Shown here: in pieces, positions 27,726 through 56,988 of the stretch
How positions within the stretch are numbered: the first letter of the stretch is position 1
How the letters are laid out: each line of letters opens with the position of its first letter
Source: an uncultured virus (IMG/VR IMGVR_UViG_3300012920_000027)
Taxonomy: Duplodnaviria; Heunggongvirae; Uroviricota; Caudoviricetes
DNA: 64,000 nt
IMG/VR virus record: IMGVR_UViG_3300012920_000027
Reading direction: 5' to 3' (one strand)
Made by a program: the position numbers and the translations under genes
The notes under the pieces: generated by a model
Database searches by the model: none
What the model was told of the DNA's origin: nothing
What the model saw: only the letters and a program-made list of their open reading frames with translations

Positions 27726-27939
27726 CGCATTGCAAGATGGAGGTGGCAAAAATGGGGACGCGCCCTGGCGGGCGCTGCAAGTTGGTTTTGGCCGCAAAGC
27801 GGCCCCCCGAGGCAGGTTGCTTCGGGGGGTGAGCGGTCTTTTCATCTGTCTTGATTGCGCAGTCACGGCACCGATCTCCATTCTTCGAGAAATGGAGCAT
27901 TTTGTTCCGTCCGCAGATCACACAAGTACCTCTTGGCAT
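27721..27939 (-). CDS. Small Zn-finger protein (array)
   Basis: Motif-linked ATG; CVIC...CRDC; the 3' part overlaps the hairpins. Confidence 0.6.
   Translation of the reverse strand: MPRGTCVICGRNKMLHFSKNGDRCRDCAIKTDEKTAHPPKQPASGGRFAAKTNLQRPPGRVPIFATSILQCG
27748..27830 (-). ncRNA. Three-hairpin element at the distal end of the array (small RNA or terminator)
   Basis: Follows an ATG-less ACCGCTC; stems CCCCCCGA/TCGGGGGG, GGCCGC/GCGGCC and GCGCCC/GGGCGC, then TTTTT. Confidence 0.5.
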
Positions 27940-27945
27940 GAGCGG

Positions 27946-28089
27946 TCATTCGTCTTCATCACCATCAAGCTCGCGTAGGTACGCGCCTATGTTGCTGATG
28001 TTGGTGATGAGTTGCCAATCCTCAGCTCCACGGCTGATGATTTTTGCATGTTCGATGAGTTCTTCGACTACTTGTTTTCGAGTCTTCAT
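27946..28089 (-). CDS. Hypothetical 47-aa protein (array)
   Basis: Motif ATG to motif TGA, in frame; MKTRKQVVEELIEH... Confidence 0.7.
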   Translation of the reverse strand: MKTRKQVVEELIEHAKIISRGAEDWQLITNISNIGAYLRELDGDEDE

Positions 28090-28096
28090 GAGCGGT

Positions 28097-28387
28097 TCAT
28101 TCAACGATGCGGTAGGTCATTTTCAATCGACCTTCCCATGTTGTGATGGTGAATTCGTTCCCATTGAAAGAGAGTTCCTTTGCTTTCGGTATGTCCAACC
28201 AAGACACTGTGCCGTCCTCTGGACTTTGGAGAGCCCAAGATTTCGTCTGCACCTTCACAATTGTTCTCACACCTGAAGGGTGAGGCGGGCAACTCACTTC
28301 AACGCCGTTATCGATGTTGATGTGTTTTGTCTTTTCGATTTGCGTACCTACTTGGATTGTTCGTTTCAAATCTGCAAGTGTTTTCAT
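28097..28387 (-). CDS. Hypothetical protein (array)
   Basis: Motif-linked ATG. Confidence 0.75.
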   Translation of the reverse strand: MKTLADLKRTIQVGTQIEKTKHINIDNGVEVSCPPHPSGVRTIVKVQTKSWALQSPEDGTVSWLDIPKAKELSFNGNEFTITTWEGRLKMTYRIVE

Positions 28388-28508
28388 GAGCGGATTCGTC
28401 CTCCTTGCAGGCTCCTTTCCAGCCACAGCAAGAACAACAGACACACATTGACTCTCCGCCAGGAGAGCTCTCTGCACCACAGGTGCAAGGGAAGGTCTTC
28501 TTCTTCAT
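28308..28508 (-). CDS. Cys-rich hypothetical protein (array)
   Basis: Motif-linked ATG; reads through the next motif. Confidence 0.55.
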   Translation of the reverse strand: MKKKTFPCTCGAESSPGGESMCVCCSCCGWKGACKEDESAHENTCRFETNNPSRYANRKDKTHQHR

Positions 28509-28515
28509 GAGCGGT

Positions 28516-29136
28516 TCATTGTTCGAGCCAGTGGTGTAGGTGATGGTGTTTCCGGAGTTCGTCTTGCGTCCATTCTTCCCAGCATAAGCCGGCACCGATG
28601 GACAACACCTTGACTTCCTGGCCTTCAATCGTAATCGTGGCCATGTCTTCAAGGCTCCTGGACCATTCATCTTCGACCGTTCCATCGTGGGTCTCGACCC
28701 ATCGGAAGGTTCCATCCTCCCAACTTACATCGTATCCGTAGTCTCCCTCTATTGCGTTGAAGTACTCGCATACGGCATCAAGTTGGTCAAGCGGGAAGCT
28801 GGGCGTTGCCCATCCGTTCCATCGGTCAGCGCCATTCTTTTCTGTTCCCAGGAGGTATCCGTAGGCAACAGGTCGATCGCTGAAACCGATGGGGACAAGT
28901 CGATAGCCCCCGAAGTTGGTTTCAATGTAGTCGATGGCTGATGCCCAGATCTTCGTACGGAATACGATGGCTGAATCTCTCAAGCGACAGGCAAAGCCGC
29001 CACCGGCTGGAAACGCCTTGGTGGTGCCTTGTTTGTCTTTCCTCAATTCGCGAGGGATTCGGTCAAAGCTCTCATCCCAATTGACGGCTAGTGTGTCTGT
29101 GCTGTACAGGTTTCCTGTTTTCGTAACAAGGTACAT
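28516..29136 (-). CDS. Hypothetical protein (array)
   Basis: Motif-linked ATG; contains WNGWATPSF. Confidence 0.75.
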   Translation of the reverse strand: MYLVTKTGNLYSTDTLAVNWDESFDRIPRELRKDKQGTTKAFPAGGGFACRLRDSAIVFRTKIWASAIDYIETNFGGYRLVPIGFSDRPVAYGYLLGTEKNGADRWNGWATPSFPLDQLDAVCEYFNAIEGDYGYDVSWEDGTFRWVETHDGTVEDEWSRSLEDMATITIEGQEVKVLSIGAGLCWEEWTQDELRKHHHLHHWLEQ

Positions 29137-29143
29137 GAGCGGT

Positions 29144-29389
29144 TCAAACCTCTGCCACCCAGGGCGGCCAATCTTTGTTCGTGAAGTACAGTTCACGGTC
29201 AAAGTAGCCACATCCGAGTTCCACTTGCATCACATTCGCGTCTCCAACGATTTCTTCAACAGTGATCGTTGCTCCGGATTGCTGTTTCCACTTGGCCCAC
29301 ATTTGTCCCAGTAGGTCAAGGGCGTGTTGTTCTGTTTCCCCGTAGGCTTCGAGTTCGTAGTTTCTGGTTTCAGTCCAGGCTTTCCACAT
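29144..29389 (-). CDS. Hypothetical protein (array)
   Basis: Motif-linked ATG. Confidence 0.75.
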   Translation of the reverse strand: MWKAWTETRNYELEAYGETEQHALDLLGQMWAKWKQQSGATITVEEIVGDANVMQVELGCGYFDRELYFTNKDWPPWVAEV

Positions 29390-29397
29390 GAGCGGTT

Positions 29398-29709
29398 TCA
29401 ACCCCATTCTTCAGGGTTCTTGTAGCCACAAGCCTTCAAGGCCTCTGCCAAGCCTTCTCTCGTGAAGACGAAGTGCCCCAGTCTGGGGGCAGGTTGGCCA
29501 TGGGGGCCATCGTCACCGAAAACCGTCAGTACCATGTCTTTGTACTGAATTGAAGCTGTTTCGCCAGACATTCCAGCGAATTCCCAGTAATAAGTGTCGC
29601 CCCAATAGTACTTGTTGGGAAACATTGGTAAGATCAGTTGGCTAACAATTGCTTTCAAGCATGAGTCATCTTGATGTTCTATCATCGAGTATGCTGTTTT
29701 CTCTGTCAT
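29398..29709 (-). CDS. Hypothetical protein (array)
   Basis: Motif-linked ATG. Confidence 0.75.
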   Translation of the reverse strand: MTEKTAYSMIEHQDDSCLKAIVSQLILPMFPNKYYWGDTYYWEFAGMSGETASIQYKDMVLTVFGDDGPHGQPAPRLGHFVFTREGLAEALKACGYKNPEEWG

Positions 29710-29716
29710 GAGCGGT

Positions 29717-30844
29717 TCAGGCGATCACCGGAGGTTCGTGGTGGAAGTTGAGGAATTCTTCTGCCGGCGACGATCCTGTTCGAGTCTCGTAGGCCTTCTG
29801 CAGTATTTTCCTGTTCTGGCTGTGGTGATAGCCAGTACTGTTCCATTGTCCGGTGATGTGCTTGTGCAGGGCATCGGGGTCGTCGGCGAGTTCACCGAGC
29901 GTTTGTGCATCACGGTCGAGCTCCCAGATGTTGTGGAGACCTCGTGCCGAGGTGCCGATGGCCTTGTCTGCGCTGAGGGCAGCAAGCATTTCATCGAAGG
30001 TGTAGCCGTTCGCCTTTCCGAAAGGGTAGGTGTCCTCGTCGTGGATTGACCGGAGGTGGGCTTGAGCCCATTCCTTGTCGGTCGTCGACGACGAACCTAC
30101 TCTGATGAAGCGACCAAGGTCTGCTGCCATCAGCTTGCGGGTCATGGCGTTTAGGCGCCAACTGGTTGCATCAACACATTCAGCGCCCAGCATGGTGGCG
30201 ATCTTAGCGGCGTTCATGCCGCCGGCACCAAGAAGGAAGAATTGCTTGTCTTGGGCAAGGAGTCCTTCACTCGTTTCGATAATCACTTGCCACAAGTCCT
30301 CTTTGCGAACGAGGTCGTGGCTTGAGGCATTCTTCGCTGCCCCGATGCGCGACATCACTCGTTGGGTGGATTGGGCAAGGTTTGATCCAAAGCCCACCAT
30401 TCCATCGGTGTTGTAGTTGGTCAAGTGGTCGAGAGCTTCCGTCGCATTCCGTCCGTGAATCACGGGAATGGTCTGCGGGATGGCTGCACTCATCTCATTG
30501 AACCAGGAGCAACTCGTCTGTTGACGGGTCGCAACCTCCTGGGCGCTGAGGTTCGAGAACCTGGGCACAGGAAAGTCGGCTGCGATGATGATGTCGTCTT
30601 TGTTCACTCCGATGCGGTGGTGGCTCTCAATGAGCTCATTCACATCGAATCCGACGGCTGCTTCAGGGTTCTGAAGAAAGTGGAAGCCACCCGAGTCCTT
30701 TGCGACACGGTTCTTGGTCAGCTTCGTGCTGTACCCATCTTCGAGCTTCTCGTCCACGGTGATCAGGATGGTGTCCGTTTGGTTACGGATGTCCATCGGG
30801 CGTCTGCCAATCAGGCAGGCGGTCTCACTGGTGTAATTGTCCAT
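29717..30844 (-). CDS. tRNA-guanine transglycosylase-fold protein (DpdA-like candidate)
   Basis: KDSGGFHF, AADFP, IPVIHG, VGFGS, FLLGAG and GAECVDATSW in TGT motif order. Confidence 0.75.
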   Translation of the reverse strand: MDNYTSETACLIGRRPMDIRNQTDTILITVDEKLEDGYSTKLTKNRVAKDSGGFHFLQNPEAAVGFDVNELIESHHRIGVNKDDIIIAADFPVPRFSNLSAQEVATRQQTSCSWFNEMSAAIPQTIPVIHGRNATEALDHLTNYNTDGMVGFGSNLAQSTQRVMSRIGAAKNASSHDLVRKEDLWQVIIETSEGLLAQDKQFFLLGAGGMNAAKIATMLGAECVDATSWRLNAMTRKLMAADLGRFIRVGSSSTTDKEWAQAHLRSIHDEDTYPFGKANGYTFDEMLAALSADKAIGTSARGLHNIWELDRDAQTLGELADDPDALHKHITGQWNSTGYHHSQNRKILQKAYETRTGSSPAEEFLNFHHEPPVIA

Positions 30845-30853
30845 GAGCGGTGT

Positions 30854-31099
30854 TCAGCCTTTTCTTTCGAAGTAGGCCTCAGCATCTTTGATGATGCAAT
30901 GGTTACATTGGGGCATGCATTCACAACTGTACTGGCAGTCACATTGGACCAGTCCCTTGTACGGTAAATTGAGGACATGGAGCGTCCAGTCCTTTGCTTC
31001 CCTATCTTCGCCACAATCCACACATCCAAGTTCTTCGCCGATCATCTCGACGGCTTGTTCTATGAATTTCTTCCTTTTGTACATTGGAACTCCTGGCAT
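30854..31099 (-). CDS. Cys-rich hypothetical protein (array)
   Basis: Motif-linked ATG; several CxxC/CxC pairs. Confidence 0.7.
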   Translation of the reverse strand: MPGVPMYKRKKFIEQAVEMIGEELGCVDCGEDREAKDWTLHVLNLPYKGLVQCDCQYSCECMPQCNHCIIKDAEAYFERKG

Positions 31100-31106
31100 G
31101 AGCGGT

Positions 31107-31382
31107 TCATTGAGGCATAACCAGATACCAATCGCACCCGACCACATGTGCCATACTGAACAGATGCCCGTAGCCCGGCTCACGCCAGTCTTTCGGGTGT
31201 TCTGGATCGTTGGCCAACATGCGGTACCAGGCATCAAATCGCGCCCAGCTTGATTGGGTGATTCTTGGCAGATCGTCATGCGGGTATTCCGTTTCAAGCT
31301 TGCACGCTGAATTGACGGTCAAGCCGGCTGCTCCCATTCTCGCCTTGATGGCGATGTAGAGGTCTTCTTTGGTAGGTAGCAT
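31107..31382 (-). CDS. Hypothetical protein (array)
   Basis: Motif-linked ATG. Confidence 0.75.
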   Translation of the reverse strand: MLPTKEDLYIAIKARMGAAGLTVNSACKLETEYPHDDLPRITQSSWARFDAWYRMLANDPEHPKDWREPGYGHLFSMAHVVGCDWYLVMPQ

Positions 31383-31389
31383 GAGCGGT

Positions 31390-31695
31390 TCAGTCGTCGA
31401 GGAGACTTGTCTCGAACTCGACGCGACACCATGCCTCCATGATGTACTGGAGGGTCTGGATGATTTCCTTTTCAGTCATTTCCTTGAAGACGATTTTCGT
31501 CGGGGACTCTTTGTACGGCCCCCAAGGGCCACCAAGGGTCACCTGTTCGATGTCTTCATTCATCCAAGGTCCAGACTGATATGTGGCTTCTTCACCATTT
31601 TCCTCAGCAATCCATCGTAGTGGCGATGGGTCGCCGAGGTTGCTGTTCGGCACAATGCTGAAGGTGTACTTTTTTTGTTCAACAAAAACGGTCAT
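31390..31695 (-). CDS. Hypothetical protein (array)
   Basis: Motif-linked ATG. Confidence 0.75.
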   Translation of the reverse strand: MTVFVEQKKYTFSIVPNSNLGDPSPLRWIAEENGEEATYQSGPWMNEDIEQVTLGGPWGPYKESPTKIVFKEMTEKEIIQTLQYIMEAWCRVEFETSLLDD

Positions 31696-31713
31696 GAGCG
31701 GTTTGGCGTCAGG

Positions 31714-32277
31714 TCATCGCTTGGGCAGGTGGTCGGGGTAGTAGTTCACCCAATTGAAAAGTTGGAATAACAACGATTCCTCAAGGCGAGCCCTTACGAT
31801 TGGTTTGTCGTGAAAAATTGGAATGAACTCCATCCCCAGTTCGTACACCTTATCTGTTGTCCACTTTTGGGACTTCCAAAACGGTAGAGACGCTGCACAT
31901 GATCGTGAGCCATTGGGGCGCATGAATTCGTAACCGACGGTCAGCATTCCGTTTGAATAGTACGAGCCCCAAACTCTGAGGCTGTGCTTGCCTTGTTTGA
32001 GTTCAAAAATCTGGAGCTCTTCCTCTTTCGCAAAAATGCCACTACCGATTATGTCCGTACCTTGCTCCATCTCATATGCTTTGATGGCATCTGTCCAGGC
32101 ATCTTGGATCAATCTCCTTCCTTGGCTGTCCCCTTTGTAGGGGACGCCCAAGTATTCGTGGAACTCTGCGCATGTTTCCTGGCGAAGCCAGCTTTGGATT
32201 GCTGCTTCTTGGAGTTCAGCTGTGTTTTCTACGGGTATTTTCGGCTTTGGCCACCCGTTTGCTTCGTGCCATTCCAT
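31714..32277 (-). CDS. Hypothetical protein (array)
   Basis: Motif-linked ATG. Confidence 0.75.
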   Translation of the reverse strand: MEWHEANGWPKPKIPVENTAELQEAAIQSWLRQETCAEFHEYLGVPYKGDSQGRRLIQDAWTDAIKAYEMEQGTDIIGSGIFAKEEELQIFELKQGKHSLRVWGSYYSNGMLTVGYEFMRPNGSRSCAASLPFWKSQKWTTDKVYELGMEFIPIFHDKPIVRARLEESLLFQLFNWVNYYPDHLPKR

Positions 32278-32284
32278 GAGCGGT

Positions 32285-32596
32285 TCATTCGCACAATGGG
32301 CAATCCATTGGTGCGCACGGATCATCAGGATGTTCGGGGCAATACCACCACAATCCAAAGTCTCCGTCTTCAAAGGCGAAGGCTGTGTTGTCCGGTATCT
32401 CCAGGTTTTCGTTGAGCCAAGCAATCGCTTCGTCCGCCATTTCAGGTAGATGGTCTTCATTGATTCCGTTGCCTGGGCCCCAGTCTTCAACCTTGTAACC
32501 TACTTCTTCAGCAAATTCCAGCACCCGTAGCATGTTGTACTCGGCACCGTAAGCTCCATCGAAGTGGCATCCCACATTTTCCAGTGTGAATTTCAT
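32285..32596 (-). CDS. Hypothetical acidic protein (array)
   Basis: Motif-linked ATG. Confidence 0.75.
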   Translation of the reverse strand: MKFTLENVGCHFDGAYGAEYNMLRVLEFAEEVGYKVEDWGPGNGINEDHLPEMADEAIAWLNENLEIPDNTAFAFEDGDFGLWWYCPEHPDDPCAPMDCPLCE

Positions 32597-32603
32597 GAGC
32601 GGT

Positions 32604-32843
32604 TCATTCGTCAGTGACTCGACCCATCAGGGAGTCAAAGTTCCATCCGCAAATGGTTGCGAATACCCTGTTGATCTGGCGTCTTGTGCGGGGCGTGTAA
32701 TCATCCCACTCAAGAGCGAGATTATTGATTGCCCTCACAGCGTCTGGATCCTTTTCGTCCAGGACCGCTTCGACGAATTCATTCCATAGGCCGGTCCACC
32801 AAACATCATTGTCGATGGTTTCAATCAGCTTCTGTCGTTCCAT
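32604..32843 (-). CDS. Hypothetical protein (array)
   Basis: Motif-linked ATG. Confidence 0.75.
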   Translation of the reverse strand: MERQKLIETIDNDVWWTGLWNEFVEAVLDEKDPDAVRAINNLALEWDDYTPRTRRQINRVFATICGWNFDSLMGRVTDE

Positions 32844-32850
32844 GAGCGGT

Positions 32851-33129
32851 TCAATCGGCAAATTGCTCGATTGTCGGGAATTCCCAAGTGCCATCATCGA
32901 TCCATTCGTTGGCCACGATGAGGAAGTCATCGTAGGTACGACCTTGGTCAAATAGATCACCGAACTGATTGATTAGCTTCCATGCGTGCATGATATTGAG
33001 CTTCAGTTCTTCCCACTCACCTTTCGTCGAGTAGCACGCTTCAAACGCTGCTTGGATTGTTTCAGCAATGAGTGTTCTCGCTTCATGAAGCGAGTTCTCG
33101 TGCAGTCTTCCGTTCTTCAGGATGGTCAT
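32851..33129 (-). CDS. Hypothetical protein (array)
   Basis: Motif-linked ATG. Confidence 0.75.
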   Translation of the reverse strand: MTILKNGRLHENSLHEARTLIAETIQAAFEACYSTKGEWEELKLNIMHAWKLINQFGDLFDQGRTYDDFLIVANEWIDDGTWEFPTIEQFAD

Positions 33130-33136
33130 GAGCGGT

Positions 33137-33403
33137 TCAGCTGTGATACCACAGTCGTATTCGGATGTGATCTTCATCAGAGTCAAACGGGACGAGGAAG
33201 ATTCGGGTAATGTCGACCTTCTTTCTCACTCGAGTCTTTCCCTTCGCAGGGTAAATCTCAGATTTACCTTCGATGATGTCCTCGACGATCCACTTCTTGT
33301 AGCGCTTGGGCATATGTAGCAAGTTGTCGCCGAGGATGTCCTTGACCGTCTTTGCGGTCAACACATCACCGATGTTCATGTCGATTGGTTCAATGCGGGG
33401 CAT
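33137..33403 (-). CDS. Hypothetical protein (array)
   Basis: Motif-linked ATG. Confidence 0.7.
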   Translation of the reverse strand: MPRIEPIDMNIGDVLTAKTVKDILGDNLLHMPKRYKKWIVEDIIEGKSEIYPAKGKTRVRKKVDITRIFLVPFDSDEDHIRIRLWYHS

Positions 33404-33429
33404 GAGCGGTGCTAACGGGTGCAGTCGTT

Positions 33430-34200: not shown

Positions 34201-34207
34201 GAGCGGT

Positions 34208-34420
34208 TCATTCGTAGTTGAAGGAATCAAGGTACCTATCTTGAATGATCGTAGAGACCTCAGTCACGGCTTCCTCAATTTTCTTCGCGCCGAGTGTGCT
34301 GTATTCTCCCCAGGTCAGGCGCATTGACTTGTCTTGTCGCCATGTTTCACACAGCAAATCTGCTGCCATTTGCCAGCAATACTTCACTAGATTCCGGTAG
34401 ATTTTCTCATCAGGGGTCAT
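34208..34420 (-). CDS. Hypothetical protein (array)
   Basis: Motif-linked ATG. Confidence 0.75.
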   Translation of the reverse strand: MTPDEKIYRNLVKYCWQMAADLLCETWRQDKSMRLTWGEYSTLGAKKIEEAVTEVSTIIQDRYLDSFNYE

Positions 34421-34427
34421 GAGCGGT

Positions 34428-34730
34428 TCATTCATCGGTCAGTTCCGTCGGTAAGACGCGCCCTTCAAGGGGCTCGACCATGATTCTGAAACCCCTGCGC
34501 TTGATGGTTGCATTCCATTGCAGTTCGGGGTTCAAGAGGTGCGGTGCCTTCTTTCCAAGGGTCACCTCGATAGCTCGGTAGGCGATTTCCCTGATCGTAG
34601 CTTCATTCAGACTTTCCTTGCCGTCGACCATGTCTCTGCATGTGTCCCAGATGTAGGAATGAATCTTCCTGAATAGGTCCCGGGCTTGGCGGTCGTTCAG
34701 TCTCATCGGATTGGTGATGTCGATGTCCAT
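34428..34730 (-). CDS. Hypothetical protein (array)
   Basis: Motif-linked ATG. Confidence 0.75.
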   Translation of the reverse strand: MDIDITNPMRLNDRQARDLFRKIHSYIWDTCRDMVDGKESLNEATIREIAYRAIEVTLGKKAPHLLNPELQWNATIKRRGFRIMVEPLEGRVLPTELTDE

Positions 34731-34737
34731 GAGCGGT

Positions 34738-35151: not shown

Positions 35152-35158
35152 GAGCGGT

Positions 35159-48270: not shown

Positions 48271-48497
48271 GAGCGGTCAGCTACTGTGAAGCGCTGCGGG
48301 GAGGTTTTGATGATTTTGAAGCGTTCATCACCTCCGAGGTAGGACTTGACTGCTCCGTGATGGATGTCGGGTCCCTTTGCCTGACGGACCTTATCACACA
48401 GGTCCAAAGCCAACAACGGGCTGTCGGCTTCGCAAAGGACCTCATACGCCTTATCACGGAAGCGGTCTCGTTTCCAGTGTTTGTTGATCCTGGTCAT
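48261..48497 (-). CDS. Small winged-helix-like protein (array)
   Basis: Motif-linked ATG; AYEVLCEADSPLLALDLCDKV...VKSYL. Confidence 0.6.
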   Translation of the reverse strand: MTRINKHWKRDRFRDKAYEVLCEADSPLLALDLCDKVRQAKGPDIHHGAVKSYLGGDERFKIIKTSPQRFTVADRSCL

Positions 48498-49322: not shown

Positions 49323-50438
49323 TCATTCCATCAGTTCGTCAAGTGCTTGATCGAGGAGAGCTTGCTGCCGACGCTCGATGTGTTGCTTGACGGTGTACCT
49401 GATTGTACCCTTCGCATGTGGCTGGCTCCCATCGTTGGGGTAGCGCAGTTGAATCAATGCGGCCTTGCCGTGCTTGTTGTGGTCAGCACATTGGGGCTTG
49501 TCGCAATATCCAGTTGCATAGGGCTGCCGGTGGTGACCGGCAAAGCAGGTTCCATTGGACTTGACTGGCTCGCCATCGGCGTGCCATTGTGCGTGCTTGT
49601 CCTTGAGGTAGAAGTTTTCCTCGATGGCTAGGGCTTCTTTGAGCCCTTTTCCATCAGCATCAACCAGACGGTCCACTTCCCATTCTTTCACGAATGGACA
49701 CCACATGCACGACGACTTTTGGACTGGGGAACCATCTCCCCGGTAGTCCCATCCAAGGGCGTCAAGCATCTCGAGGCACTCCTTCCGGTCCATACCCAAA
49801 TCCATGAGAGGGTAGCCGTAGGTGTGTCCAAGGATTTGATTGCCCTTGAGGTCGTTCTTTCTGCGGTTTGCTGTGAACCTGTCTGATCGTCCCGACTCCC
49901 CTGCTTCAATGCCAAGGAGCCAGTGTTTGGTGCATACTTCATGGTTCCCGAAGGTTCGGTCGCCCCATTTCTGTTGGACTTGACCTTTGAACCTCATCGA
50001 GCACACATGGCCGCCGCTGCTTCCAGGAATCACAGGAAAGCTTCCGCCATCCATCAGCCATTCAAAAATCGTGTACACCTTCGGCGTCTTCTCGTACTCA
50101 GGCTTCACCTCCTTGTCGAGCTTTTTCCACTCGGTCCAACGAAGTTCCTCGCCTGTTTCGCGATGCTTGTAGATGTTGATCTCGTGACGGACGGTGACGA
50201 GAGGAAGCCCGATTTCTTCGCACCGCTTCTCAGCGTATGCAATGTTCTCGTAGGTCTCTGGCCATTCGGAGCCAGGATCGGAGAACACCGCCGCCACGAT
50301 TGGCGGCAAAGCTTGGTCGAGCTTCTCCCGAGTGATTCCAAGTTGTGCGGCTGCGCGGTCTCGGTCGAGGACCATTGCGAGAAGCGCCGTAGAATCGACG
50401 CCTCCACCGTAGGACAGGATGTTCACTTGTTCAGTCAT
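49323..50438 (-). CDS. PP-loop (adenine nucleotide alpha-hydrolase / PAPS-reductase-like) protein
   Basis: ILSYGGGVDSTA, FSDPGSEWPETY, CSMRFK, YPL and KSSCMWCPF motifs. Confidence 0.8.
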   Translation of the reverse strand: MTEQVNILSYGGGVDSTALLAMVLDRDRAAAQLGITREKLDQALPPIVAAVFSDPGSEWPETYENIAYAEKRCEEIGLPLVTVRHEINIYKHRETGEELRWTEWKKLDKEVKPEYEKTPKVYTIFEWLMDGGSFPVIPGSSGGHVCSMRFKGQVQQKWGDRTFGNHEVCTKHWLLGIEAGESGRSDRFTANRRKNDLKGNQILGHTYGYPLMDLGMDRKECLEMLDALGWDYRGDGSPVQKSSCMWCPFVKEWEVDRLVDADGKGLKEALAIEENFYLKDKHAQWHADGEPVKSNGTCFAGHHRQPYATGYCDKPQCADHNKHGKAALIQLRYPNDGSQPHAKGTIRYTVKQHIERRQQALLDQALDELME

Positions 50439-50444
50439 GAGCGG

Positions 50445-50591
50445 TCACTGCACCTCGATTGTATCGAGGGCCTTTTTGATTTCGTCTCGGAGCTCAAGAT
50501 CAAACGATGACGACTCTGCGTCCATGTAAAGTGTTTCCATGATGATCTCGTAAGCCCAATCGGGCATAACAAGGGTTACTTGCTTGGTCAT
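50445..50591 (-). CDS. 48-aa protein (array)
   Basis: Variant motif ACCACTCATG to motif TGA, in frame. Confidence 0.65.
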   Translation of the reverse strand: MTKQVTLVMPDWAYEIIMETLYMDAESSSFDLELRDEIKKALDTIEVQ

Positions 50592-50601
50592 GAGTGGTTC
50601 A

Positions 50602-50773
50602 CTTTCACTTTCACATCTTAGGGTGTAAGTTGATTGATATACCAGAGCCTCTGATTTCCGTTGCTCTGGTGGACGGCGAGGGTCGGGGTCTGCACTTTTG
50701 CGTGTGTCGACCTCCCCGAGGGAACTCGCCGTCCATCAGGCAACATGCAGATCACCCCTAAGATCGTGTCGGT
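50602..50773 (-). ncRNA. Putative ~170-nt structured ncRNA (long rod with an internal bubble)
   Basis: Follows an ATG-less motif; stems 50615-50623/50756-50764, 50660-50680/50725-50744 and 50681-50685/50708-50712. Confidence 0.6.
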
Positions 50774-50780
50774 GAGCGGT

Positions 50781-51221
50781 TCATTCCTGGTCGAGCCAGG
50801 AAAGGTCGATGGATCGGATGGCTTCGTCGAACTCATCCGACCGTAGAACTTGGTGGCAAAGGTTTGTGTTCCCATGCTTGTGTTCGACTCCTCGACCGCT
50901 GCCCAAAATTGTGGAAACAGCGAGGTAAGCGAGGTTTGCGATGAAGCGTGCGTCGTTGCAAGGGCTTGAAGCGTTGGTAGACCAACCAGCAGCAGCCATG
51001 CGCTTCACAAAGTCGAGGTCGACAAACGATGGTACTTCTTCACCGAAGGCGTTGGAAGTGGCGCAGAGGCGCCAGTACCAGTTCTCCGGGTCACGGCTGA
51101 TGAGTCTGTGTTCGTTGAACACATTGCACATCGAACCAAGAATCCAGCCATTTGTCCATTGCAGTTCTTTTTCTGAGAATCCCTTTGAGATTCCGTTCGT
51201 AATTCCTACTAGTAGAGGCAT
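50781..51221 (-). CDS. Hypothetical protein (array)
   Basis: Motif-linked ATG. Confidence 0.75.
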   Translation of the reverse strand: MPLLVGITNGISKGFSEKELQWTNGWILGSMCNVFNEHRLISRDPENWYWRLCATSNAFGEEVPSFVDLDFVKRMAAAGWSTNASSPCNDARFIANLAYLAVSTILGSGRGVEHKHGNTNLCHQVLRSDEFDEAIRSIDLSWLDQE

Positions 51222-51230
51222 GAGCGGTTT

Positions 51231-51653
51231 CTGCTGCTCCCAAAGTGGCGTGTCCGAAGACGCAGGCCAGGGTAGCGCCAGTTTTGTGACCGGGGCTCGA
51301 TCGTTTCCTCCCGTGGCAATAACCAGGGCTTGAGCTTCTGGACCCAATTGATGCCCCGGGAAACAGAGTGTGCTTGCGCGGCGCGCTGCAGTGACCCCTT
51401 CCAGGCGGGCATGTTCGTCCAACTTGCTATCTCCCAATGGTCTACCACGCCTCGGTTCCACGAACCCAAACGGTATGGCGCACTCTTCCAGTCACTGCCT
51501 AAGACTGCGTGACGGGGAGCGTGCAGAAAGCGGTCACCCTTCTTGTGAGCTTGCGAGGACCTGGATGCAACTGAGATTCTTCACGCTAGACCTTGATCTT
51601 GCGCTACTTCTTCTACGGTGCTGAGGTCTCCCCGTCTTGTCGTCAGGGTGAGT
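51231..51653 (-). ncRNA. Putative ~420-nt structured ncRNA
   Basis: Follows an ATG-less motif; no motif-led ORF; several hairpins including a cUUCGg tetraloop on the minus strand (51252-51261). Confidence 0.5.
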
Positions 51654-51668
51654 GAGCGGTTGAGGGTT

Positions 51669-52319
51669 TCATTCCTCTTGTTCCGAGTTCTTCTCGTTCA
51701 TTGCTTGCATGAACCTCTCGACGAGGGCGCGAGCCCCCCCGGCTTCAAAGTTCGGCGACAAGCAGTTGCGCGTAGGCATATCTTCCCATGTCTGCTCTTG
51801 GCCGGACATGAGGACCGTGCCTTGTACGCAGTCGTAGATGAGATTGCCGGAAACGGCGAAGTCCCCTGCGAAGCTACCGTACTGGCTCCAGATTGGATCG
51901 ACGAGTGCTTCCTCGAATCGGATGCCTCGACGGCGGTGGTAGTCTGGGTGCTTGCCATCCATAGCTTCGGGTTCAGGTTCAATGACTTGGTCGATGCCGT
52001 CGAAAAGATCCTTGTAGCAGAATTCAATGAATGAATCTTGACCGTTATTGATGTACATGGTGATATTTTCTACATCGCCACTGTCGTGGCCGCCGTAGAA
52101 GTGAATATCGAGCTTGGACACACCGATTTCCTGCAGTATCGCAAGGGTCTCACCAGGAGACGGCAACTTGCGCTTGGTGCGGATCTCGGTTTCACCACGG
52201 TAGTTCTCATATTCGTACTCGACGAATCCGAAAAGTTCCTTGGTTGCCACTAGGACTTCCATGATCTTCAAACGGAGGGTATCTCGGATATTGGTGTTGG
52301 CACTTTGTTCTTGTGTCAT
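51669..52319 (-). CDS. DUF6878-like protein (array)
   Basis: Motif-linked ATG; IHFYGGHDSGDVE. Confidence 0.6.
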   Translation of the reverse strand: MTQEQSANTNIRDTLRLKIMEVLVATKELFGFVEYEYENYRGETEIRTKRKLPSPGETLAILQEIGVSKLDIHFYGGHDSGDVENITMYINNGQDSFIEFCYKDLFDGIDQVIEPEPEAMDGKHPDYHRRRGIRFEEALVDPIWSQYGSFAGDFAVSGNLIYDCVQGTVLMSGQEQTWEDMPTRNCLSPNFEAGGARALVERFMQAMNEKNSEQEE

Positions 52320-52326
52320 GAGCGGT

Positions 52327-52722
52327 TCAAAGCATCCTGCACCGAGGGCATGCAACGCCGAAGCGTTCCACGACCGGGCATTCTGCCATCGTTCGTTGTT
52401 CATCTGCATTGAGGTTGCCCCAGCAATGCTCCTCTGCGTATTCCTTGACCTCTTCAGGGGCTTCAAGAGACACGGCGAGGATTGGGGTCCATTCGTACGG
52501 GTCGGGTTGGTCGTCTGGTATCTGGGTGTTATGGAGGCAGAATTGGTTAATTCCTTCTCGGCCAGTCACTACATCGGTAATCCAGTATTCCTCGCCGACC
52601 TCAAGTTCAAGCTCATCTCCTTTGCTGTTGGTGATGATGAACTTACGGCCTTTCAATTGGAAGGCTCTGTCGACGCCAAAAGGCATCTCAATGAAGTCTT
52701 CTTCGAACCAGTATTGTTTCAT
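52327..52722 (-). CDS. Hypothetical protein (array)
   Basis: Motif-linked ATG. Confidence 0.75.
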   Translation of the reverse strand: MKQYWFEEDFIEMPFGVDRAFQLKGRKFIITNSKGDELELEVGEEYWITDVVTGREGINQFCLHNTQIPDDQPDPYEWTPILAVSLEAPEEVKEYAEEHCWGNLNADEQRTMAECPVVERFGVACPRCRML

Positions 52723-52737
52723 GAGCGGTTGTGAGGT

Positions 52738-52941
52738 TCATTCCTCTTCGGCGTAGCGTTCTCCGTGACCTTCCATCACCCACGATCCGATACCGTTTCC
52801 GTTCGAATCGGTGATGAGTCCACCAATAGCTCCATTGCTCACGGATTGCTTGATCTCGTCAAGGATTTGCGTGATTTCAGGTAAAGGTGTCTCGTCAAAC
52901 GCTGCGTTGTCCATCATGAAATGCATTCTGAATTGGGCCAT
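52738..52941 (-). CDS. Hypothetical phage-type protein (array)
   Basis: Motif-linked ATG; DNAAF...DSNGNGIGSW. Confidence 0.75.
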   Translation of the reverse strand: MAQFRMHFMMDNAAFDETPLPEITQILDEIKQSVSNGAIGGLITDSNGNGIGSWVMEGHGERYAEEE

Positions 52942-53138
52942 GAGCGGTCGTAGTGGCGCCACAGTCGTTCGTAGACCGAGTAGATCGGAATGAACACGAT
53001 GGTGCTGTAAATGATGAATGGTCCTACCATCGTCATGTAGTCCATGTCCATGAACCAACACCACGCCAGGGCGAAGGGTTGGAAGACAATGGTCCCGTAG
53101 ACGGGGCGGAAGAAGTCCTTCCAAAAGTGAGGTCGCAT
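52914..53138 (-). CDS. Small membrane protein (array)
   Basis: Motif-linked ATG; two hydrophobic segments. Confidence 0.7.
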   Translation of the reverse strand: MRPHFWKDFFRPVYGTIVFQPFALAWCWFMDMDYMTMVGPFIIYSTIVFIPIYSVYERLWRHYDRSWPNSECIS

Positions 53139-53145
53139 GAGCGGT

Positions 53146-53391
53146 TCATTCTGTGATCAGTTCAAGGTCACGGGGGAAGATGTAGAATTTTGTCCAATTG
53201 TCCCAGACCAAATCCAGTCCGGCGAACAAAAATCCGTGTCTTTCACACTCCTTCTCAGCCTCTTCCAAGGCCTTCTCGATGTTTTCTTTCGTCACATCCG
53301 TAGGAAAAATCAGTTCCTCGGTGTCGCCGTGTTTGTCTTCGTTGTCTCGGTAGAAATGGACAAGCCAGAATTTCGAATCTGTGTTTTCCAT
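53146..53391 (-). CDS. Hypothetical protein (array)
   Basis: Motif-linked ATG. Confidence 0.75.
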   Translation of the reverse strand: MENTDSKFWLVHFYRDNEDKHGDTEELIFPTDVTKENIEKALEEAEKECERHGFLFAGLDLVWDNWTKFYIFPRDLELITE

Positions 53392-53398
53392 GAGCGGT

Positions 53399-53701
53399 TC
53401 AAAACACCATTGGTTTTTGGTGTAGCAAGCAAAAGTGGATTCCCCTCATCACTGCGTCGAAGACGAATTGAGCTTCACGCTCAGTCATCAACCCAGTAGC
53501 CAAGGGGCACTTGTTGTGTTTGGATTTCGTGACGGCCCAAACGCCCCACTCTTGTGAGGGGTCTTGGTCGCCGGGGTAGATCGTGTGAACAAGCACGATG
53601 TCCAAGTTTGCGTCGCAGACATTGGGTTTGGTCACATCCATGATGTCCTTCTCGAGCTTGCAAAAATCTGGTTTCTCTTGACGGATAACCTTGTGTTCCA
53701 T
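53399..53701 (-). CDS. Hypothetical protein (array)
   Basis: Motif-linked ATG. Confidence 0.75.
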   Translation of the reverse strand: MEHKVIRQEKPDFCKLEKDIMDVTKPNVCDANLDIVLVHTIYPGDQDPSQEWGVWAVTKSKHNKCPLATGLMTEREAQFVFDAVMRGIHFCLLHQKPMVF

Positions 53702-53709
53702 GAGCGGTT

Positions 53710-54099
53710 TCAACCCTGGTAGGGTTCGTATTCGTTGGTCGTTGAGTTCCATTGGAAGTACTGCCCATACCCTTGAATGTACCACTGGCCAGAGCCTGGT
53801 GGCATCTCAAAGGGCTCACCCCATCCTGTTGCGCCTTGCTCCATCGGGACCTCGAATTGAGAGGCAACAGGCGTGAGATTGACTTGTCTTCGGCTTGGGA
53901 TAGCCACCAAGACAGGAAGCCAACACCACACCAGCACCGTAAGGTAGCCAGCGTAGAAGGCGGGGGTATGAACGAATTCAGGCAGATCTACATTCGGCAG
54001 ATCGTACTCAAGGTATGTTGCACCTACATAACCGATGGCTCCGAAGAGCAAAATCAGTCCTGTGATGCGGCGGGTTGCCATTGCAACGAGGTTCGTCAT
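53710..54099 (-). CDS. Two-TM membrane protein (array)
   Basis: Motif-linked ATG; two TM segments and a Trp/Tyr-rich C-terminus. Confidence 0.75.
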   Translation of the reverse strand: MTNLVAMATRRITGLILLFGAIGYVGATYLEYDLPNVDLPEFVHTPAFYAGYLTVLVWCWLPVLVAIPSRRQVNLTPVASQFEVPMEQGATGWGEPFEMPPGSGQWYIQGYGQYFQWNSTTNEYEPYQG

Positions 54100-54120
54100 G
54101 AGCGGTTGTAGTGGGTTCAA

Positions 54121-54486
54121 CTAGAAAGGCGTGTCCGTGAGGAACTCTTCCATCATCTCAACCCTCTTCACCTGGTTTGTTCGGGCATCAAGGTCGATGA
54201 TGGTGTTCACTACCTGTGTTCCATCCATCTTTGTGACTGTGCAACGAGACCTTGGCTTGAGGTAAATGCGATACTTGCCGATCGTCCCATCCTCTTCTTG
54301 CCTGTTCTCGTCTACGATTGCGAAGTCTCCCGCCTTGGTAAGGCGACACTCCATTTGCCCATCCTCGGTCATGCGAGTGATGGAAATGTCGGGGCCGCAT
54401 TCTTCCAAGAGGAAAACCTTCAGCGCATCTTCTGATTCATGCCAGTCTTGTTCTTGGCCGTCACTCGTCGTGTACTTCAGGTTCAT
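54121..54486 (-). CDS. Hypothetical protein (array)
   Basis: Motif-linked ATG. Confidence 0.75.
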   Translation of the reverse strand: MNLKYTTSDGQEQDWHESEDALKVFLLEECGPDISITRMTEDGQMECRLTKAGDFAIVDENRQEEDGTIGKYRIYLKPRSRCTVTKMDGTQVVNTIIDLDARTNQVKRVEMMEEFLTDTPF

Positions 54487-54500
54487 GAGCGGTTTCCACC

Positions 54501-54893
54501 TTAAGCGCTACTGCGCACAACGGCGTCTGTGTACCCGATTGAAAGGTCCCAAGCCTCGACATAACGCTCCACCCCTGGAGTCAGCTCCAACATGAGCTGT
54601 GCTGTAAAGGGGTGAAGAAGCAGCCAGTCTTCCAGTTCGGGCAACCATTCCTTGGCTTGCTTCAGAACTGTAATCGGGTCTGTTTCCTCGTTTTCCATCT
54701 CAGGGTCGATGACCGGACAATGGGGTTCGGCCAGTTCCTCAAAGAGCAACTGATTCAGGGCATCGTGTACTTGCTGTTCTTCCTCCCAAAACGAGATTCC
54801 CCGAAGGAATCCTGGTTGTGTTTCGTTGGGCGAGTCGTATGATCCATCATCTCGAATGTAGAGGACATGAATCGTTCCTTTTCCAGCGTTCAT
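54501..54893 (-). CDS. Hypothetical acidic protein (array)
   Basis: Motif-linked ATG. Confidence 0.75.
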   Translation of the reverse strand: MNAGKGTIHVLYIRDDGSYDSPNETQPGFLRGISFWEEEQQVHDALNQLLFEELAEPHCPVIDPEMENEETDPITVLKQAKEWLPELEDWLLLHPFTAQLMLELTPGVERYVEAWDLSIGYTDAVVRSSA

Positions 54894-54900
54894 GAGCGGT

Positions 54901-55146
54901 TTAGCAGGGTTCTCCTGGGTCGAAGTTTCCACCTTCATCAGAATCCATGGCCTTCAGGGTCAATTCAACCCAAGCGGCATCTTTGTCGTCGTAGATCACC
55001 GACGCGCCCTCGTCGAAATGCATGATGCTCTCGACTTCTTGGCCTTCGAGGTTGTAGTTCTCCAAGTGGTAAAACACGACATCAGCCCCCGGTGGGCTCT
55101 TTTGGAGGATTTCAATGAGTTCTCCAACGGTCAATTGCTTTTTCAT
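54901..55146 (-). CDS. Hypothetical phage-type protein (array)
   Basis: Motif-linked ATG; LTVGELIEILQKSPP. Confidence 0.75.
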   Translation of the reverse strand: MKKQLTVGELIEILQKSPPGADVVFYHLENYNLEGQEVESIMHFDEGASVIYDDKDAAWVELTLKAMDSDEGGNFDPGEPC

Positions 55147-55152
55147 GAGCGG

Positions 55153-55239
55153 TCACTCACCAACGAATTCACCGTGGTAAGGCATTTCTGTGTGGTTATG
55201 GTCCGGACGGACCAGTTCAAGGTCGAATTGAGGCGACAT
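55153..55239 (-). CDS. 28-aa micro-protein (array)
   Basis: MSPQFDLELVRPDHNHTEMPYHGEFVGE; motif ATG to motif TGA. Confidence 0.6.
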   Translation of the reverse strand: MSPQFDLELVRPDHNHTEMPYHGEFVGE

Positions 55240-55246
55240 GAGCGGT

Positions 55247-55504
55247 TCACGATTTCTTTTTCGGCTTCTTTCGTCCCCATTTGAGGATTTCAAAGCTTGT
55301 TGCTTCTACGACGAAACCTGATCGTTGGGCAGTTTGGACTTCCAACGATCTGTAGGGTTTGAGTTCTCGAGGCAGTTCAATTGGCCCTGCGTCTCGGAGT
55401 TCCTCCAACAATTCCTCTTTGAGTTCGTCAACCTGTTTTTTCAATTGGTTTTGCTTGTCCATCAAGGTTCTAAGCTCCTTGATTTTGTCGATTTGCGAAA
55501 GCAT
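55247..55504 (-). CDS. Small coiled-coil protein (array)
   Basis: Motif-linked ATG. Confidence 0.75.
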   Translation of the reverse strand: MLSQIDKIKELRTLMDKQNQLKKQVDELKEELLEELRDAGPIELPRELKPYRSLEVQTAQRSGFVVEATSFEILKWGRKKPKKKS

Positions 55505-55519
55505 GAGCGGTTGTTGGAT

Positions 55520-55867
55520 TCACAGGGCATCCACAGACCAACGGTTCACCTTGATTTTCACATCCGGGTAGTAGTGGTCGTGGCATAGCTGTACTTGGTA
55601 GGCAAGCATTCCATCGGGTTCTGAGTCGTAAGCTCCGTATCGGCTAAACAGACCCATCACAATCCTCATGTCGTGCTGTAGCTTTTGGGCGAAGTCCATC
55701 GCGTCCTGTTGCCCAAAGGGCACCCCAGGCTTCTTGGTTGCGCCGTACATGTCCCGTGCCATCAAATTGAACGACATGTTCAGGATCTCTGCGACCTCAT
55801 CACAGTTCATCGTACTTGAGTACAGTTGCCATGATTCAGCGTCCATGTTGCAGGTGTAGTGTTCCAT
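55520..55867 (-). CDS. Hypothetical protein (array)
   Basis: Motif-linked ATG. Confidence 0.75.
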   Translation of the reverse strand: MEHYTCNMDAESWQLYSSTMNCDEVAEILNMSFNLMARDMYGATKKPGVPFGQQDAMDFAQKLQHDMRIVMGLFSRYGAYDSEPDGMLAYQVQLCHDHYYPDVKIKVNRWSVDAL

Positions 55868-55883
55868 GAGCGGTAGTTGACCC

Positions 55884-56108
55884 TCACAAGTCCTTTTCCT
55901 TTACCTCTTGACGAACTGTGATCACAGCCCTTTCTCTGTTCAGCAAGAGACGCAAATCGCTCAAAGAGATTTGCAGGGGGATGTAGGTCATCCCGTCCTG
56001 TGCAGTGTAGGTATCACAGTCCCGAAGGGCGTTCCTGTTCAAGGAAAGCTTGAGGCTGTCTTCGGCAGTCGAGCGTCGGGCGTATCCGGTTAGGATGTTT
56101 TCAGTCAT
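55884..56108 (-). CDS. Small protein resembling a conserved Thermoplasmatota hypothetical (array)
   Basis: Motif-linked ATG; GYARRS...LKLSLN...TYTAQDGMTYIPL...ERAV (resemblance recalled, not verified). Confidence 0.6.
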   Translation of the reverse strand: MTENILTGYARRSTAEDSLKLSLNRNALRDCDTYTAQDGMTYIPLQISLSDLRLLLNRERAVITVRQEVKEKDL

Positions 56109-56122
56109 GAGCGGTTTGACCC

Positions 56123-56383
56123 TCAGTTGGGTCGGTAGCAGTTCGATGGTTCTGTGACCACACGAATGCGGGCGTCAGCCATTGACTCAAGCGTGACGGC
56201 TTCACCGTCAATCTCAATCACGGTGGCAAAATCGCCTGCTTCGAGGGTCTTGTTGCCATTTGAGATTGTTGCGTAGACGGTGACGAAGTCGCCCTCTTCC
56301 AAATCGTAGGTGTTTTGCGTGTAGGTCTGTTCTGCTGCGGATTCCACCAGCTTGCGCAGGTGGGCGTTCACTCGGTTTCCCAT
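56123..56383 (-). CDS. Small SH3/KOW-like protein (array)
   Basis: Motif-linked ATG; LEEGDFV...GDFATVIEI. Confidence 0.65.
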   Translation of the reverse strand: MGNRVNAHLRKLVESAAEQTYTQNTYDLEEGDFVTVYATISNGNKTLEAGDFATVIEIDGEAVTLESMADARIRVVTEPSNCYRPN

Positions 56384-56395
56384 GAGCGGTTGGCT

Positions 56396-56899
56396 TCAAA
56401 AGCCTTCTATGGAGACGATCCATTCAATTTCAGCCTCGGTAAGTGCTGCAAAACCTTCAGGGTCGTCCTTCTCAAAGCGAATCTTGGTTTCTTCGGTGTT
56501 GGGTTCCCATTCGACCTTCTTGCGTGGGTCGTTTTCTGAGAGTTCATCCCATTCTCCATAGGTGAGACCATGGCGATCCACTCGCCAATCAGGTTCACCA
56601 CCGATTTCATCGCCCCACATGTCGTCTTCTCGAAGGTCCCACCAATGGCTTCCCAGCTCGATGGCGACATTCCTCACCGTAAAGCCTCGGCTTTTGATAA
56701 GGAATTCAAGCCATTCTGAGTCCGGGGTCCACTTGCAGGCCCATTCCAAAACCAAGGTGTTTTCATCGGGTCGTTCTACAATCATGTAGTAACCCCGAGG
56801 TTCCTTGTTCAGTTCGTTCTGCAGGGTGGTTATCGCCAGGGCGCTTGTTTCAAGCCCTGTGTGGGTAATCTTCGTGTAATTGTGACACCAGTTTGCCAT
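56396..56899 (-). CDS. Hypothetical protein, YubB/DUF1281-like N-terminus (array)
   Basis: Variant motif ACCTCTCATG; MANWCHN...CKWTP. Confidence 0.6.
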   Translation of the reverse strand: MANWCHNYTKITHTGLETSALAITTLQNELNKEPRGYYMIVERPDENTLVLEWACKWTPDSEWLEFLIKSRGFTVRNVAIELGSHWWDLREDDMWGDEIGGEPDWRVDRHGLTYGEWDELSENDPRKKVEWEPNTEETKIRFEKDDPEGFAALTEAEIEWIVSIEGF

Positions 56900-56906
56900 G
56901 AGAGGT

Positions 56907-56979
56907 GCTCTCCACCACCGATTCATGGTGGGAGTTCAAACCGCATTCCAAATTTGGTCCAGGGCGGCATCTGGAGAGC
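56907..56979 (-). ncRNA. 73-nt tRNA-like element (non-canonical)
   Basis: 8-bp terminal stem GCTCTCCA/TGGAGAGC; a 5-bp stem with 7-nt loop abuts the 3' strand; exactly bounded by two motif copies. Confidence 0.6.
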
Positions 56980-56988
56980 GAGCGGTTT

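Follow-up and report, generated by a model that had tools for sequence, protein, structure and literature searches.

A seven-nucleotide junction motif heads non-coding cassettes as well as genes in the small-gene array of an uncultured marine phage

The small-gene array and its junction motif

The window analysed here is a contig of 64,000 nucleotides (nt) from an uncultured marine phage (IMG/VR record IMGVR_UViG_3300012920_000027). It is phage-like, with large genes at bases 1-27,500, and from 27.8 kb to the window end it carries a tight array of small genes on the minus strand. Our subject is the word ACCGCTC, which stands at the junctions of this array and is called the head below, and in particular those copies of it that are not followed by a start codon. 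There are 90 copies on the minus strand of the window and one on the plus strand, compared with 7.19 expected for both strands together. ATG stands directly 3' of the word in 84 of the 90 minus-strand copies, and the remaining copies comprise five in the array and one outside. Twenty-four sequencing runs were listed for the window sequence, none of them of RNA, and the strain contigs compared below come from four DNA runs. All 84 motif-linked starts are ATG, and neither GTG nor TTG was found directly 3' of any motif copy in the window. Seven further starts have a head with one mismatch, such as ACCTCTC or ACCACTC. At most array junctions the stop codon of the preceding gene is located 0-2 nt before the head, and some heads sit 17-51 nt within the preceding open reading frame (ORF). 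A literature search for the motif word returned primer noise only.

Among the 15 large proteins encoded at bases 1-27,500 one has a PHROGs match, and Pfam identified a RusA resolvase among the large genes of the window. A beta-prime-like polymerase gene adjoins the array (24930-27476, plus strand), and its protein contains an RNA_pol_Rpb1_5 domain (Pfam, E 4.8e-22). This polymerase protein has no tblastn match in 50,697 GenBank phage records. Eight of the 89 array proteins belong to a Pfam family at or above the curated cut-off, namely a DNA methylase, several DUFs, and two PAPS-reductase-like proteins, of which one falls slightly short of the cut-off. The array also encodes a Zn-ribbon protein with a score just below the Pfam cut-offs.

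Related phages and the turnover of cassettes

A pattern of two heads found one further IMG/VR record, G001, which is 127,570 bp long, has terminal repeats and a GC content of 43%. It contains 97 motif copies on one strand (11.4-57.6 kb) and two on the other, and ATG follows 87 of the 95 array-strand copies located within the first 70 kb. The G001 homologue of the polymerase protein also carries RNA_pol_Rpb1_5. A pattern scan of metagenomes gave more than 120 matching stretches, of which those with a GC content of 0.39-0.53 and dense copies on one strand were kept. These are the 66-kb contig Ga0181393_1000007 (47% GC; Ga0181393 in the following) and about 20 short contigs with 39-53% GC. Nine G+C-rich matches of the scan were inspected and rejected. 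Seven are tandem protein or DNA repeats (L194, L137, L166, L134, L174, L178, and L193), and two are false matches to unrelated CRISPR-like arrays (L156 and L191) with a 66-nt period, whose repeat contains ACCGCTCATG by coincidence; the other high-GC loci were excluded on composition and copy density alone. In the window and 23 related sources taken together, with near-duplicate contigs counted, 464 of the 500 sense copies abut ATG.

Gene order is scrambled between the relatives. Contigs of related strains delete cassettes by joining 55143 to 55237 (93 nt) and 57360 to 57618 (257 nt), with ten shared letters at the joint, and the joints fall within the 10 nt of head plus ATG. Related strains also insert 123, 722 or 403 letters exactly at heads (54496, 55512-55519, and 53063-53709). 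The deletions and insertions at heads mean that cassette turnover happens at the motif.

Motif copies without a start codon

The original prediction had listed four copies without ATG. All four were found on the minus strand at 27831-27837, 50774-50780, 51654-51660, and 56980-56986, and they are followed, as claimed, by ACC, ACC, ACT, and GCT. The list was incomplete, since a fifth copy in the array at 58587-58593 had been overlooked. The bases next to it are CCG, and the rule that the next base is always a purine therefore holds for the four named copies but not for the fifth, which begins with C. Behind this copy there is a 16-nt leader (58571-58586) and then the ATG of a DUF3860 gene (58319-58570, minus strand). 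The DUF3860 gene, which encodes a winged-helix-like protein, is the only array gene with a pyrimidine-rich leader of 16-17 nt between head and ATG; the same layout of head, leader, and ATG is present in Ga0181393, and the end of the gene overlaps the ACCTCTC-ATG of the next gene. A sixth copy lies outside the array at 25542-25548 (minus strand), antisense within the RNA polymerase gene, and is followed by AGA. In the 27 distinct ATG-less contexts collected from window and relatives, A follows the motif 20 times, C six times, and G once, and the next two bases are AC in 15. If the copies with ATG are counted as well, nearly all copies end in C and are followed by A.

By number, the five ATG-less copies in 36 kb are not far above chance, with about two expected according to an estimate that scales the window expectation of 7.19 to one array strand. 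Chance is nevertheless unlikely because of their placement after stop codons and their conservation in relatives. Each in-array copy follows the stop codon before it at a distance of 0-13 nt. In the relatives the motif is retained at the corresponding site, in five of five for the copy at 56980 and likewise in five of five for the copy at 27831, to which the contig L164, cut after the first hairpin, can be added. In the relatives conservation sets in exactly at the motif, with differing sequence upstream. Each of the four copies is an ordinary junction head, and the unit behind it is a non-coding cassette instead of a gene. The best explanation for these cassettes, called A to D in the order 27831, 50774, 51654, and 56980 of their heads, is that A is an array-terminal cassette with start signals for the next gene, B an insert specific to the lineage, C a spacer of a loose family, and D a three-way-junction RNA.

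Hairpin-rich sequence had been claimed to follow each of the four copies. In a shuffle test this stood for B (z -4.60; none of 200 shuffles as stable) and D (z -2.54; 2/200), was marginal for A (z -1.56; 16/200), and failed for C (z +0.28; 59/100), so that to speak of four structured elements overstates the case for C. The first stem begins directly after the motif at 56979 and 1 nt after it at 27830 in the window, as had been described. As to covariation, which had been proposed as a check, paired changes were found in hairpins 1 and 3 of A and in a hairpin of C, whereas the shuffle control was not significant for D and B has no homologue to compare.

None of the four elements matches an Rfam family. 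At the gathering threshold the whole window is without a match, and permissive scans of three regions (50400-51700, 56880-57000, and 27440-27850) yielded only a stray match to a CRISPR repeat (E 1.2), located in the gene between C and B. In the relatives Rfam identified one tRNA only. The six-frame translations of B and C match nothing in the relatives. D and A match equally in all frames, which indicates that the nucleotides and not a coding sequence are conserved. A search for a G+C-rich hairpin followed within 0-2 nt by a T run, as in terminators, found no minus-strand site in A, B, C or D. All four elements are non-coding and none of them looks like a decayed ORF.

A conserved 73-nt element with a three-way junction

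The head copy at 56980-56986, which is kept in all five contigs that contain the element, lies 2 nt after the stop codon of a 124-residue gene. Element D behind it (56907-56979, minus strand) is 73 nt long and resembles a three-way-junction RNA, with an 8-bp closing stem from the first base after the head plus two hairpins. The variant head ACCTCTC (56900-56906) stands behind D in all five copies, followed by ATG (56899 in the window). The five copies are 86-93% identical, compared with 67-80% identity of the flanking genes to two larger relatives, and D is thus more conserved than its neighbouring genes. All 20 predicted pairs are kept in all five copies, and the closing stem begins at position +1 in each. 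The changes comprise one compensatory replacement of C-G by U-A and one of U-A by U-G, and all others are in loops; because the variation is so small, the shuffle control is not significant (91/500). The G-U pairs are consistent with the array strand. The only short ORF of D is disrupted by indels of 1 and 2 nt, which exclude a conserved peptide. The gene behind D in G001 differs from that in the window, and together with the ACCTCTC-ATG behind all five copies this means that D travels as a unit.

A covariance model of D was run against 54 sources with 373,199 bases in total. It recovered the five known copies, one of which was counted twice because two loci overlap, and beyond these only a partial match with E 0.33; there is one copy per genome. 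A pattern of the 21-base core gave one chance match in 185,579 species genomes, with unlike flanks and no tRNA, and hence no bacterial counterpart. Because D has the size of a tRNA and its 8-bp closing stem is stacked on a 5-bp arm, a tRNA was considered, but ARAGORN found none in the window and there was no Rfam tRNA match. The loop of the second arm has 6-7 nt and varies freely among the five copies. A hammerhead and a k-turn were rejected by eye against their consensus. Also by eye, the GAGAG in the 3' strand of the closing stem can pair with the CUCUC of the ACCTCTC head across a 3-nt loop (56900-56914). A switch of this kind, if it forms, would explain why the ACCTCTC variant is kept in all five copies.

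The element at the array end

Element A (27697-27830, minus strand) follows the head copy at the array's downstream end (27831-27837). Its neighbours are the Zn-ribbon ORF on one side and the gene of a conserved basic protein of 80 residues on the other. The Zn-ribbon ORF (27721-27939) has the pattern CxxC...CxxC in its first 34 residues. In 5' to 3' direction, A consists of hairpin 1 (about 27803-27829), hairpin 2 (about 27790-27804), the box CCAACTTGCA (27776-27785), hairpin 3 plus a T run (about 27760-27775), the box CCATCTTGCA (27731-27740), and the start signal AAACGGCTGAACC (27710-27722), which stands 13 nt before the ATG of the basic protein at 27696. All five homologues form hairpin 1, which starts at +1 in four of them. 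Among these five homologues the strands of hairpin 1 change together, from CCCCCC/GGGGGG to CCCUCC/GGAGGG, and L138 has a different stem. Hairpin 3 also covaries, with CGCCC/GGGCG being replaced by AGCCC/GGGCU. The indels of A are not multiples of three.

The lineage-specific insert and the spacer

The head copy at 50774-50780 stands directly after the stop codon of a 146-residue gene. Behind it lies element B (50599-50773, minus strand), a strongly self-complementary non-coding insert of 175 nt that is specific to the lineage of the window, and then the variant head ACCACTC (50592-50598) with the ATG of a 48-residue ORF (50446-50591). The relatives have an ordinary head at the gene that follows B in the window.

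The head copy at 51654-51660 lies 8 nt after the stop codon of a 216-residue gene and is followed by element C (51229-51653, minus strand), a non-coding spacer of 425 nt. As a whole C is not unusually stable, and blastn and tblastn against the relatives gave no DNA or protein match at E 0.01. It weakly resembles three elements in two relatives, and the family alignment was built from this weak similarity only. Within this alignment an 8-bp hairpin (51583-51604) is conserved, being 100% paired in the four copies. Four of its pairs show double changes, none of 500 shuffles reaches its score, and controls slid along the alignment pair at 11-43%. A wider family that would unite C with elements in L155, L173, L200, and L171 was considered; these have the word AGAGTA in common with C but a different hairpin.

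Signals for translation and transcription

A Shine-Dalgarno 5-mer is present in five of the 84 array leaders versus 10 of the 18 non-array starts of the window, several of the plus-strand ones among the latter being uncertain. The structural genes (1-16200) have strong GGAGGTG-type sites at normal spacing, seven of nine on the minus strand, from which it follows that the host uses Shine-Dalgarno initiation. One phage thus shows two translation styles, with GGAGGTG sites in the structural genes and none in the array (27800-64000). The coding sequences of the array start A/C-rich. With the 16S rRNA of E. coli as a stand-in for that of the host, the best complement of the head is 6 nt long and occurs at five places, without any 7-mer, and about three such matches are estimated by chance.

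Sigma-70-like promoters are not enriched in the array and, if anything, less frequent than in shuffled sequence, with 6 found and 11.5 expected at 25-44 kb and 4 found and 11.2 expected at 44-64 kb, and none of the promoter-like sites at 25-64 kb is located at a junction. Two other signals were found. The first is a box of the form CCA(T/A)CTTGCA, which in the window is present on the minus strand at 27776-27785 and 27731-27740 in element A and at 11821-11830, about 40 nt before a structural gene with a ribosome site; it is also found at 48292 and 52163 of G001 and at 58226 and 61773 of Ga0181393. The box follows terminator hairpins, and in the relatives it is fused 6 nt before ATG (box-CC(G/A)CTC-ATG). 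It is a candidate for a further phage promoter class. A sigma-54 promoter was considered for CCATCTTGCA and rejected on inspection by eye, since a GG is missing and the spacing deviates by 2-3 nt.

The second signal, AAACGGYWGAACC, has eight sites in G001 (59204, 60248, 60357, 65321, 65993, and 67514 on the plus strand, and 11266 and 88523 on the minus strand). At all eight a start follows 13-14 nt further on, namely an ATG lacking a ribosome site in six cases and the 5' end of a tRNA gene (tRNA-Lys and tRNA-Arg) in two. Its counterpart in the window is the start signal of element A at 27710-27722. This looks like a promoter that would set the RNA end at the first base of the unit. The occurrence of the signal before both tRNAs and ATGs means that this phage group places fixed-distance signals before RNA genes, too.

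A possible RNA 5' end at the head

The ATG-less copies are a natural experiment, in a phage lineage without a cultured relative, on whether a motif that heads about 100 genes is a ribosome signal or a signal for RNA ends or cassettes. The motif is probably more than a ribosome signal. The original prediction, namely that it acts independently of translation and marks the position where an RNA or cassette begins, is borne out insofar as the motif is not tied to a start codon and the cassette joints fall within it; that an RNA begins there is what we infer. We give a probability of about 0.5 to the reading that the head determines the position of an RNA 5' end, namely the base next to it, either as a promoter-initiator or by cleavage. 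The end would have C at -1 and A at +1, or G in the case of D. The head could be a short start-site-proximal promoter or initiator for the phage's own RNA polymerase, or it could be a cleavage site in a long transcript. In both cases the genes would be expressed as leaderless mRNAs beginning at AUG, and each non-coding cassette would be set free as an RNA with its first stem at the 5' end. This is suggested by the step from C to A or G at the motif, the stems at +1, and the conserved blocks that begin at the head. It is also suggested by the missing ribosome sites, by ATG being the sole start codon, and by the parallel of the tRNA-linked signal. A precedent is provided by phages that encode a multisubunit polymerase and have very short promoters close to the start site (PMC7598289). 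An RNA end at this place and the enzyme that would make it are matters of interpretation, whereas the anatomy of the junctions, their conservation, the pairing, and the lack of Shine-Dalgarno sites can be read from the DNA.

If the motif sets RNA 5' ends, these phages would express a large arsenal of anti-host genes in an unusually compact way as leaderless messages, the motif would be a short and portable expression signal, and it would mark D as a new conserved phage RNA. A wider form of this reading is possible but tentative: ACCGCTC could be the universal RNA-5'-end signal of the lineage, read either by the divergent polymerase of the phage or by a sequence-specific endoribonuclease, which would split the region of 36-46 kb into about 90-100 leaderless messages and launch new non-coding RNAs including D. 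D would then be a new 73-nt RNA without an Rfam family that moves as its own cassette.

Several observations weigh against an RNA 5' end at the head. With the leader of 16 nt behind the copy at 58587, the DUF3860 mRNA would not be leaderless. Two ATG-less copies in the relatives (G001 48352 and Ga0181393 58284) have canonical hairpin-plus-U terminators 10-12 nt further on, for which a promoter reading has no need, and these terminators are followed by a separate promoter-like box CCATCTTGCA that is fused to CC(G/A)CTC-ATG. The separate box before the next head suggests that the head alone may not start transcription, and the terminators together with the boxes suggest that some ATG-less copies may only close the preceding cistron. 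Element A carries the CCA(T/A)CTTGCA-type box twice and in addition, for the gene that follows, the second start signal. An obligatory cleavage at the head of A would fit poorly with the Zn-ribbon ORF of the window, which continues past the motif without a stop codon and reads through hairpins 1-3; three relatives have an ORF upstream of A that ends at the motif or shortly before it.

The folds weigh in the same direction. The stability of A is marginal and that of C ordinary, and in both B and D the two strands fold equally well. Compared with a background of 113 windows of 175 nt, mostly coding and taken from 64000 down to about 47200 (mean z -0.96, standard deviation 1.32), the z value of B is extreme but not unique, since the coding windows 60526-60700 and 49576-49750 reach about -5.6 and -5.1 (25 shuffles each) and are as strong. 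B has no homologue among the relatives by blastn or tblastn at E 0.01. Six of the eight substitutions listed for related strains fall on predicted minimum free energy pairs of B, and five of these six would break the pair without a visible change of the partner. As to the enzyme, a single polymerase domain is detectable, Rpb2_6 and Rpb1_2 have no match in G001, and divergent subunits may escape Pfam. Within genes the motif was seen five times versus 3.95 times expected, most of these being junction copies in overlapping ORFs, so that a depletion is not significant. On the antisense strand of genes it is absent versus 3.0 expected, a value also reached by 5 of 100 shuffles. Both numbers are too weak for an argument from motif avoidance within genes, which was abandoned.

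Alternatives to an RNA end

The alternative that survives best, and that we consider rather unlikely, is that the head works only before genes or as a recombination repeat and that nothing starts at the ATG-less copies, whose hairpins would be part of either the preceding transcript's 3' end or the control region of the next gene. With a head flanking every unit of the array, terminators, restart promoters, and inserts would come to lie behind a copy as well. This alternative would account for non-coding units that have a head on both sides. In Ga0181393 such a unit consists of ACCGCTC, 60 nt with a terminator plus CCATCTTGC, and ACCGCTC-ATG, and in the window the second heads are ACCACTC behind B, ACCGCTC behind C, and ACCTCTC behind D. 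The loss and gain of units with a 10-nt overlap at the head in a scrambled gene order, the separate start signals for the next gene in A, and the two copies before canonical terminators in the relatives are also consistent with it. However, A to D themselves lack the hairpin-plus-T pattern on the array strand of the window, and with a mere remnant it is hard to see why the stem starts at the first base in five of five copies of D and four of five of A, why 20 of the 27 non-coding contexts begin with A, or how about 90 genes without Shine-Dalgarno sites are translated. Even if the motif were only a remnant of junctions, it would still mark the exact points at which these phages swap genes.

It is improbable that ACCGCUC is a ribosome signal, that is an element for start or re-start without Shine-Dalgarno sequence on polycistronic mRNAs, with the ATG-less copies being leftovers of cassette exchange. 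The absence of a spacer before ATG in 84 of 90 copies, the stop codons 0-2 nt before the head at most junctions, and the array leaders without Shine-Dalgarno sites are what such an element would produce, and the first gene after the terminator-plus-box modules of the relatives still keeps its head. On the other hand, a signal for ribosomes is usually spaced from the P site, and a head that touches ATG leaves no room for this spacing. Heads that lie 17-51 nt inside the preceding ORF are unsuited to re-initiation, the complements to the E. coli 16S rRNA do not exceed 6 nt, with five places found and about three estimated by chance, and the motif together with the following base is kept before conserved non-coding RNAs in five contigs.

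The original prediction had named decayed ORFs with mutated start codons as a way to refute it, and such an origin of the four units is hardly credible. In its favour, 39-51 codons are open after the heads of C and B, and the frame of the next gene stays open through the last 233 nt of C (GTG at 51461). However, no translation of B or C has a counterpart in the relatives, and homologues of the gene after C start at head-ATG. D and A contain indels with lengths not divisible by three and are conserved irrespective of frame. In B, five of the eight listed substitutions fall on first codon positions of its only ATG-started ORF.

Comparison with known systems

The closest known systems are the late promoters of jumbo phages and the PeSL cassettes of T4-type phages. 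The late promoters of phage multisubunit RNA polymerases are T(-3)ATG(+1) in phiKZ and A(-11)ACA-N6-T-A/G(+1) in AR9 (PMC7598289). They share with the present motif a very short word against the start site, the lack of a -35/-10 pair, a beta-prime-like polymerase gene, and many copies on one strand. They differ in that the present word has 7 nt, is G+C-rich, abuts the ATG of about 90 consecutive genes, also heads non-coding units, and is known from sequence alone. PeSL cassettes consist of a sigma-70-like promoter plus a terminator stem-loop (Arbiol et al. 2010, PMC2839356). They are similar in having small, mostly unknown genes in a plastic region with a repeated regulatory unit, at which genes are gained, lost, and exchanged, as in the 93- and 257-nt skips here. 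The repeat here, in contrast, has 7 nt and touches ATG, and there is no sigma-70 signal and no stem-loop at ordinary junctions. What sets the case apart is a G+C-rich word of 7 nt that touches ATG and heads non-coding RNAs as well.

More distant parallels exist. In known leaderless genes an ordinary -10 box is found at about 7 nt upstream. The array resembles them in the lack of Shine-Dalgarno sites, in ATG as the sole start codon, and in the A/C-rich coding start, but here a conserved word fills positions -7 to -1 and is also found before non-coding units. In the late promoters of poxviruses the initiator TAAAT runs into ATG, so that many genes have the initiator of a viral polymerase joined to their start codon. 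The likeness is an analogy only. Poxviruses are eukaryotic viruses, their transcripts have a poly(A) head, and there is no sequence likeness to ACCGCTC. Integrons have a tyrosine integrase and attC inverted repeats of 60-140 nt. They share with the array small, promoterless-looking cassettes in one direction, a repeated junction, and gain and loss at this junction, whereas the junction here has 7 nt and no imperfect inverted repeat. No integrase family was found among the 89 array proteins and the 18 other proteins of the window.

Other non-coding stretches in the relatives

Towards the upstream array end of G001, the locus L128 (53.6-57.6 kb) has no Rfam match at the gathering threshold. It contains long G+C-rich non-coding stretches of 821 nt and more with repeated hairpin modules, and its genes are headed by ACCACTC-ATG.

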